Virus record (IMG/VR): IMGVR_UViG_2737471854_000004 | Coordinates: 1-49,583 of that record | Direction: 5' to 3' (one strand) | Length of the DNA: 49,583 nucleotides | DNA from: a virus | Taxonomy: Duplodnaviria; Heunggongvirae; Uroviricota; Caudoviricetes | Shown: piece after piece, positions 29,789-30,147 of the stretch | How the letters are laid out: the number at the start of each line of letters is the position of its first letter | Position numbering within the stretch: position 1 is the first letter of the stretch | Made by a program: the position numbers and the translations under genes | Notes under the pieces: model-generated | The model's input: the letters and a program-made list of their open reading frames with translations, nothing else | The model's database searches: none | Told to the model about the DNA's origin: nothing

Positions 29789-30147
29789 TCTATGCATGAG
29801 AATAAATCATTTTTATTGTAATAAAAATCAAGGCGTCGGGTGCCTCCCGAAGTATTCCACTTTACATGGATACTGTGGTTTCCCGCTAAATCGAATATAT
29901 AAACCACCCTCGCACTGAGGAACGCCTCAATTCATAGTTTTCGACACAGAGATTGCGCATCACCGGTTTTCCGGTGCTCCATGCTGCTTGCTTTCGGAGG
30001 CAAGCGCCATTTCTTATTCATAAAAAATACAGCACTGAATCTGCAAGAGACCTTCGTAACAGAATGAGGGACGATAATAAAACTACCAAGGTCTGTTCCT
30101 CACGAAAAACGCCAGTGCTGTAAAAATTCACAAAGCCAGAGTAATGA

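Follow-up and report, generated by a model that had tools for sequence, protein, structure and literature searches.

PasD1 and PasD2 are northern-verified, Hfq-dependent sRNAs, known from RIL-seq and northern blot analysis in EPEC (PMC8550237). A common ancestor has been proposed for PasD and STnc100, and both are placed in the interval from Q to the holin/lysozyme genes (bioRxiv 10.64898/2026.05.13.724894). In phage 933W, STnc100 is situated 75 nt downstream of stx2B; this copy scores 207.7 bits against the Rfam STnc100 model (RF02076) and has the same architecture as the core described below. Precedents for RNA processing in phage transcripts are the lambda sib/tI retroregulator, the T7 RNase III processing hairpins and the maturation of DicF. 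The two short hairpins considered here lie beside an STnc100/PasD-like core, and on balance we regard them as one lineage's rearranged form of a conserved leader hairpin, hairpin A, in a structured leader on the late strand.

The window, by which we mean the whole 49,583-nt stretch analysed (IMG/VR record IMGVR_UViG_2737471854_000004), is a lambdoid prophage, and the hairpins lie on its minus strand, that of the late transcript. The order along this strand is Q-like gene, AraC-like gene, tRNA-Arg, T0, the hairpins, the STnc100/PasD-like core, T1–T3 and holin. Pfam places DUF1133/Phage_antitermQ, AraC HTH, Phage_holin_8, Phage_holin_3_7 and Peptidase_M15_4 domains in the neighbouring genes, all on the minus strand. 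The Q-like antiterminator (DUF1133 and Phage_antitermQ) spans positions 31553–32095. Between it and the tRNA lies the AraC-family regulator (approximately 30580–31320), a gene that is missing from most relatives of the module and that RefSeq gives as a shorter protein of 158 aa in strain C41. The tRNA-Arg at 30148–30223, with anticodon UCU and an encoded CCA end, was called by ARAGORN and scores 47.8 bits with RF00005. It is followed by T0, a branched hairpin at 30029–30121 (fold z = −2.3) with a U-run at 30022–30027. In the alignment of T0, the basal stem GCACUG/CAGUGC is near-invariant, the interior hairpins covary and six or seven U residues follow. T0 resembles a terminator and comes directly behind the tRNA; as a conserved branched structure of some 100 nt (30022–30121), it is more than a simple terminator. 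Two further terminator-like hairpins, T2 (29723–29745) and T3 (29615–29636), both on the minus strand, were found by terminator scan and alignment. Together with T1 they stand in a row in the roughly 190 nt that immediately precede the holin start (29597–29790), a block near-identical among prophages whose upstream parts differ.

A second conserved block, of about 100 nt, follows the Q-like gene at 31447–31550 on the minus strand and is shared by relatives that differ downstream of it. It closes with a terminator, AACCCGCC-AUUGA-GCGGGUU-U6, at 31447–31466. We infer that this block may hold the late promoter, a Q-utilisation site and the first terminator; read as the late promoter, it would place the hairpins about 1.5 kb from the start of the late transcription unit. 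A consensus scan of positions 29500–31700 returned no promoter-like sites; between T0 and the core, no sigma-70 promoter was found by scanning, and nothing resembling one is conserved in the alignments.

The tRNA slot differs in content between prophages. The counterpart of the window's tRNA-Arg(UCU) (30148–30223, minus) in the alignment is a tRNA-Gly(UCC) in one module copy of RM11911 and, in another copy, a degenerate tRNA of 31.8 bits, which ARAGORN does not call in OkiPb01675; the loci compared with the window for this slot were L002 3442–3514 and L006 1409–1478. Other relatives carry Thr and Gly, Arg and Gly, or Ile and Arg tRNAs there. Elsewhere in the window, Rfam identifies two further small RNAs on the minus strand. 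The match to RalA (RF02694) at 47849–48027 is full-length and scores 223.8 bits; in the type I toxin–antitoxin pair RalR/RalA, RalA is the sRNA that serves as antitoxin. The match to the sok antitoxin RNA (RF01794, 91.7 bits) at 33592–33765 indicates that a hok/sok-type module lies immediately upstream of the Q region.

Both hairpins are present as quoted in an earlier sequence-only reading, in which they were described as adjacent and perfect; the gap between them is 9 nt rather than the 12 nt given there. On the minus strand, hairpin 1, CACCGGTTTTCCGGTG (29961–29976), forms CACCGG-AAAA-CCGGUG, with a 6-bp stem, a 4-nt loop and pair probabilities of approximately 0.99–1.0. Hairpin 2, GCTTGCTTTCGGAGGCAAGC (29986–30005), forms GCUUGC-CUCCGAAA-GCAAGC, with a 6-bp stem, an 8-nt loop and a pair probability of approximately 0.98. 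In plus-strand letters, these are CACCGG-tttt-CCGGTG and GCTTGC-tttcggag-GCAAGC, respectively, and on that strand hairpin 2 can be extended to 8 bp with a UCGG loop. The surrounding DNA is non-coding, as had been proposed, with the tRNA-Arg on one side and the holin start (29596) on the other. The GCCA noted directly after the second hairpin is likewise there, at 30006–30009, on the plus strand and hence opposite to the tRNA.

Perfect stems of this kind are common in the window. Counting perfect stems of at least 6 bp with loops of 3–8 nt, we find 125 hairpins, nearly twice the 69 ± 7 of dinucleotide-shuffled sequences. Adjacent pairs, defined by a gap of at most 15 nt, number five, compared with 1.5 ± 0.9 in the shuffles (shuffle maximum, 4). 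Since shuffled sequence already yields about 1.5 such pairs, a single pair is unremarkable on its own. The folding z-scores of the 81-nt stretch are −2.05 for the minus strand and −3.60 for the plus strand. The meaning of the two hairpins derives from their homologues and not from the perfection of their stems.

The window stretch can be aligned end to end with relatives in E. coli prophages and IMG/VR contigs. BLAST detects homologues of the hairpin stretch in 14 of 5,426 complete E. coli genomes, where they represent three sequence types; in the same search, the downstream core proved far more widespread. Scanning IMG/VR with the invariant core motif gave 73 loci, which, pooled with the E. 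coli and phage records, furnished 32 distinct versions of the stretch. Among species-representative genomes, the core motif produced only chance matches in unrelated high-G+C bacteria. The best-conserved relative (L004) is NZ_CM135829.1, a 4.83-Mb record labelled DH5alpha, and part of its module is also matched at similar identity in LY180 and HBUT-L. Identification of this relative as phage phi80 was considered and rejected: the phage collection contained no phi80 match to it, and its best matches were vB_EcoS-683R6 and SerU-LTIIb. In the LT-IIb toxin prophage SerU-LTIIb (L080, KU052038.1), the whole module is tandemly duplicated (1122–2456 and 3028–4395), each copy comprising tRNAs, leader, core and holin, and the tRNA pair and the core variant differ between the copies.

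In 30 of the 32 distinct homologues, the stretch corresponding to window positions 29937–30021 (minus strand; alignment and fold comparison) folds into a single long hairpin, imperfectly paired over about 29 + 6 bp. This is hairpin A, approximately 95 nt long with some 35 bp in the relatives. RNAalifold run on the alignment of the relatives returns a single long helix, and the probability of the long helix is 0.68–0.99 in the 30 homologues. An example of the pairing is that of AGAAUGGUGCAUUAUCGG with UCGGUGAUGCAUCAUUCU. The base of the helix is extended by pairing of the T0 U-run with GUAAAA, and the cap is formed by GGAGAU-UUUGU-AUUUCC beside an asymmetric loop, UGGCAGGG. A continuous duplex of at least about 20 bp, as in RNase III-type sites, is thus present in the relatives. 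The long hairpin is found intact and unannotated in 389 of 5,426 complete E. coli genomes; at permissive thresholds, Rfam yields only spurious microRNA-precursor matches for it.

The pairing in hairpin A is maintained by compensating change. In the central helix, 98.9% of the alignment cells are paired, and both sides have changed in 7 of the 14 pairs; controls in which the partner strand was slid give only 33–57% pairing. Across the whole tested structure of 22 pairs there are 41 double-changed cells, compared with 9.9 ± 3.1 in shuffles, and the covariation score is 0.319 against 0.237 ± 0.011 for the shuffles. The pairing cells include 170 G·U and 8 A·C, from which we conclude that the structure of hairpin A belongs to RNA, and to the late strand. 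The mean minimum free energy is −41.1 kcal/mol for the late strand and −24.3 kcal/mol for the opposite strand, the late strand folding better in 30 of the 32 sequences. The earlier suggestion of a small structured RNA therefore points the right way, as the stretch is part of a conserved, heavily structured non-coding RNA region; this RNA is, however, on the minus strand, and its conserved form is one long hairpin. Conservation in related prophages, on which that reading had made its proposal depend, does not extend to the two hairpins as such.

In the lineage of the window, the long helix has been lost. Its predicted probability is 0.22 in both the window and C41, compared with 0.75 and 0.68 in the nearest relatives, the RM11911/OkiPb01675 type and the EC416 type, respectively, which keep it. 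Basal arm remnants of the helix persist at 30004–30021 and 29937–29961, and 21 of the 25 helix columns can still pair. The lineage has acquired three uncompensated substitutions at the base of the helix; the middle has lost 1 nt and contains a G·A mismatch, and the top has been rewritten. With the long helix broken by the uncompensated changes and the deletion, the two arms pair locally. The alignment identifies the 5′ arm of hairpin 2, GCUUGC, as a remnant of the 5′ arm of the long helix, its partner GCAAGC being new. Similarly, the 3′ arm of hairpin 1, CCGGUG, is homologous to the 3′ arm of the relatives (UCGGUG, CCAGUG or CCGAUG) and has a new partner, CACCGG. In the window RNA, the local hairpins form with a probability of approximately 0.98, and the minimum free energy is −28.3 kcal/mol, as against −19.3 kcal/mol when the ancestral helix is forced, a cost of about 9 kcal/mol. 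The continuous duplex of RNase III-type sites is accordingly absent from the window, where two 6-bp stems stand in its place. We hold with considerable confidence that the stretch is homologous to hairpin A, a conserved RNA of the late strand, and that the long helix has been lost here.

Identity to the nearest relative is 76% for the stretch, 76% for T0, 75% for the tRNA and 92% for the core. A mosaic boundary lies near position 29935. Since the stretch has diverged to the same degree as T0 and the tRNA, there is no special cluster of mutations in it. A burst of mutation by template switching was considered as the source of the hairpins and set aside as possible but unsupported, the 76% identity of the stretch standing against 75–76% in its flanks. 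The two-hairpin form is confined to near-identical copies (C41, ZYB62, L007 and L060, two of these being IMG/VR contigs). A search of metagenomes for diverged relatives with a 21-base pattern gave RM11911-type copies and unrelated DNA only, and a viral scan with a 15-base pattern of the window subtype was swamped by chance matches; neither yielded a diverged version of the two-hairpin form. As the copies lack sequence diversity, the two hairpins have no covariation support of their own, a point that counts against reading them as a rearranged hairpin A.

This brings us to the most serious alternative for the two hairpins as such, that they are functionless by-products of a decaying leader hairpin, their stems being the product either of neutral drift or of template switching at a quasi-palindrome. 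The frequency of perfect 6-bp hairpins and adjacent pairs expected by chance is in keeping with such an origin, as are the uncompensated changes that the old helix has suffered at its base, in its middle and at its top and an identity no different from that of T0 and the tRNA, which bears no mark of special selection. On the other hand, both old arms have found perfect new partners only 9 nt apart, and the rest of the module, comprising tRNA, T0, core and T1, is intact in the lineage; moreover, a single lineage is insufficient to judge function. We consider neutral decay a real but lesser possibility beside the reading of the hairpins as a rearranged hairpin A.

One observation that sits awkwardly with a rearranged hairpin A on the late strand is that, in the window lineage, the plus strand gives the slightly more stable fold of the stretch (−29.0 versus −25.9 kcal/mol). 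Hairpin 2 might be an intrinsic terminator on the plus strand, acting against antisense transcription into the tRNA/Q region. Its extended 8-bp stem with the UCGG loop is followed by the tail GCCAUUUCUUAUUC, a consensus scan lists it as terminator-like and the plus-strand fold has the z-score of −3.6 given above. The U-tract in the tail is nevertheless poor and the consensus match weak, there is neither a plus-strand gene nor a promoter-like site upstream, and hairpin 2 is missing from all the relatives. We judge this function improbable.

Still less probable is an operator role, with the palindromes bound by a dimeric protein such as the neighbouring AraC-like regulator or a phage repressor, a variant of the protein-binding sites suggested by the sequence-only reading. 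CACCGG-N4-CCGGTG is indeed a perfect 16-bp inverted repeat, but it has no second copy within two mismatches nearby and its total in the window is near chance. Palindromes repeated or conserved near a promoter were not found, each of the two being unique in the window, and the repeats are not kept in relatives that share the neighbouring genes. The homologues, furthermore, pair through G·U, which is meaningless in duplex DNA and argues for RNA.

A degraded tRNA, or a tRNA-like minihelix ending in GCCA, had also been suggested, and we give it almost no credence. A phage tRNA gene is close by, related prophages have two or three tRNAs in the slot, and the plus strand does present a stem followed by NCCA. 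The statement that no cloverleaf can be drawn nonetheless stands, since ARAGORN, which calls one tRNA elsewhere, and the Rfam tRNA model RF00005 (E ≤ 10) give nothing in 29940–30020 on either strand, and the tRNA gene and the GCCA are on different strands. The extra and degenerate tRNAs of the relatives align with the intact tRNA-Arg of the window, not with the hairpins, and the homologous stretch in the relatives is a long hairpin unlike a tRNA. A small peptide, encoded either by a 16-codon minus-strand ORF, ATG-GCG-CTT...TGA (MALASESKQHGAPENR), or by a listed 56-aa plus-strand ORF at 29953–30123, merits equally little belief: the ATG position is conserved among relatives as AATGG(C/T)GC, but there is no Shine–Dalgarno sequence, the substitutions compensate pairing rather than being synonymous, and both readings fall because 1-nt indels shift frame and length among relatives (11, 15, 16 and 23 codons).

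The reading of the two hairpins as a rearranged leader hairpin draws on what lies immediately downstream. The Rfam STnc100 model (RF02076) matches positions 29756–29960 of the minus strand with 19.5 bits and E = 0.1, a score below the gathering score of 47, which tells against the assignment of the adjacent core; the best-conserved relative, L004, scores 24.4 bits. The two hairpins lie just 5′ of this match, outside the STnc100 model. The Rfam match, the alignment and the layout of 933W together define an STnc100/PasD-like four-way-junction core at 29828–29930 on the minus strand. A helix, UUGAGGCG/CGCCUUGA, closes the junction, and one pair of this helix covaries between UA (27 sequences) and CG (19). 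Within it are hairpins at 29908–29920, 29877–29905, 29851–29874 and 29836–29850, the last being UCGGG-AGGCA-CCCGA. An A/U-rich linker at 29787–29827, poorly conserved at 43–63% identity, leads to T1, an intrinsic terminator at 29758–29786 (AACCGCC-UCUAC-CGGGCGGUU followed by U8), which marks the end of the sRNA-like module. At the position equivalent to the linker, PasD carries its seed sequence (PMC8550237 supplement). From 46 distinct core sequences, RNAalifold recovers the four-way junction, a covarying 7-bp closing helix, the A/U-rich linker and T1. It is this adjacent core, and not the hairpins, that has the STnc100 architecture of junction, terminal CGGG-AGGCA-CCCG hairpin, linker and terminator. 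Its location in a lambdoid prophage is also that of STnc100 and PasD: it has the orientation of the late genes, with the Q/tRNA block on one side and the lysis genes on the other.

How the stretch would be transcribed can be outlined from this arrangement. Polymerase starting at a late promoter just downstream of the Q-like gene would transcribe it; alternatively, it may be reached by read-through of T0 from a tRNA promoter. As the base of hairpin A includes the T0 U-run, the long duplex would form only in transcripts that read through T0. In the relatives, the duplex of about 35 bp would most likely be a processing or stability element, plausibly an RNase III-type site, similar to sib/tI, that parts the tRNA portion from the downstream sRNA and lysis RNA. 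A processing role for this duplex, judged from the length and position of the helix, is put forward only tentatively. The two short G+C-rich hairpins of the window would be at most a generic leader structure and may be vestigial.

A more ambitious proposal, which we regard as unlikely though worth stating, is that hairpin A acts in cis as an RNA switch, so far undescribed, in lambdoid late operons, for instance as a sib-like RNase III site that would separate tRNA maturation from release of the STnc100-like sRNA or would tune the lysis-gene mRNA. If so, the two-hairpin allele of the window would be a natural loss-of-structure variant. For the window itself, the hairpins carry little weight, being a lineage-specific rearrangement that may have no function of its own. 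Of broader interest is the structured leader as a whole, some 450 nt comprising T0, hairpins A and B, the STnc100-like core and T1, which covaries, is present in approximately 7% of complete E. coli genomes and is unannotated. With it, the STnc100/PasD group gains a subtype that has a long duplex and apparently lacks its own promoter, a combination that suggests that the sRNA could come from the processing of late or tRNA read-through transcripts.

Comparison with described systems places the locus as follows. The two hairpins differ from intrinsic terminators in that no U-run follows them on the transcribed (minus) strand, where AGCAUGG and AUGCGCA are found instead. T0, T1, T2 and T3, in contrast, fit the type of the intrinsic terminators at moron boundaries in lambdoid late operons, and phage 933W has annotated terminators at equivalent places after its tRNAs. 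The lambda sib/tI element, the T7 intergenic RNase III hairpins and the maturation of DicF from the Qin prophage would be likenesses in working only, each involving a long imperfect duplex in a polycistronic phage transcript; they share no sequence similarity with hairpin A, and the long duplex is lost in the window.

The divergence from STnc100 and PasD is most evident upstream of the core. The window family has two additional hairpins there, A with about 95 nt and the small B, whereas bona fide STnc100/PasD loci have a short stretch and no conserved counterpart of hairpin A, which speaks against placing the stretch in an STnc100-type leader. A 5′ hairpin as a general STnc100 feature was considered and rejected; the 933W copy has one, but bona fide STnc100 loci do not conserve it. 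In place of hairpin A these loci have a promoter-like motif, TTGYCT...TAAAAA, seen by eye and flagged by no tool. In the form TTG(C/T)C(T/G)-N17/18-T(T)AAAA, it is conserved just before the closing helix of bona fide STnc100 (L082, 933W, 3245–3300; L219–L224), and in PasD1 the sequence TTGACT-N17-TTAAAA immediately precedes the start seen by RNA-seq. This upstream motif, missing in the window family, is possibly the promoter of STnc100 and PasD1 themselves.

The core itself has no BLAST-level similarity to STnc100/PasD beyond short motifs; the likeness is one of position and form. STnc100, PasD1 and PasD2 (EcOnc13), like the core, lie on the late-gene strand and form a four-way junction closed by a 7–8-bp helix. 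They, too, end in a CGGG-AGGCA-CCCG hairpin followed by an A/U-rich linker and an intrinsic terminator. PasD1 of EPEC E2348/69 has the same position between Q and holin and the same architecture as the window core, and its score of 37.7 bits is also below 47. In the stx-negative phages Nil3 and PhiR49_2, STnc100 directly follows a tRNA-Arg and a terminator, which is the arrangement of the window. Overall, we conclude that the feature is real but ordinary: the known STnc100/PasD class of prophage sRNA modules has an unannotated subtype whose structure is conserved, and the feature is a lineage-specific variant of this subtype.
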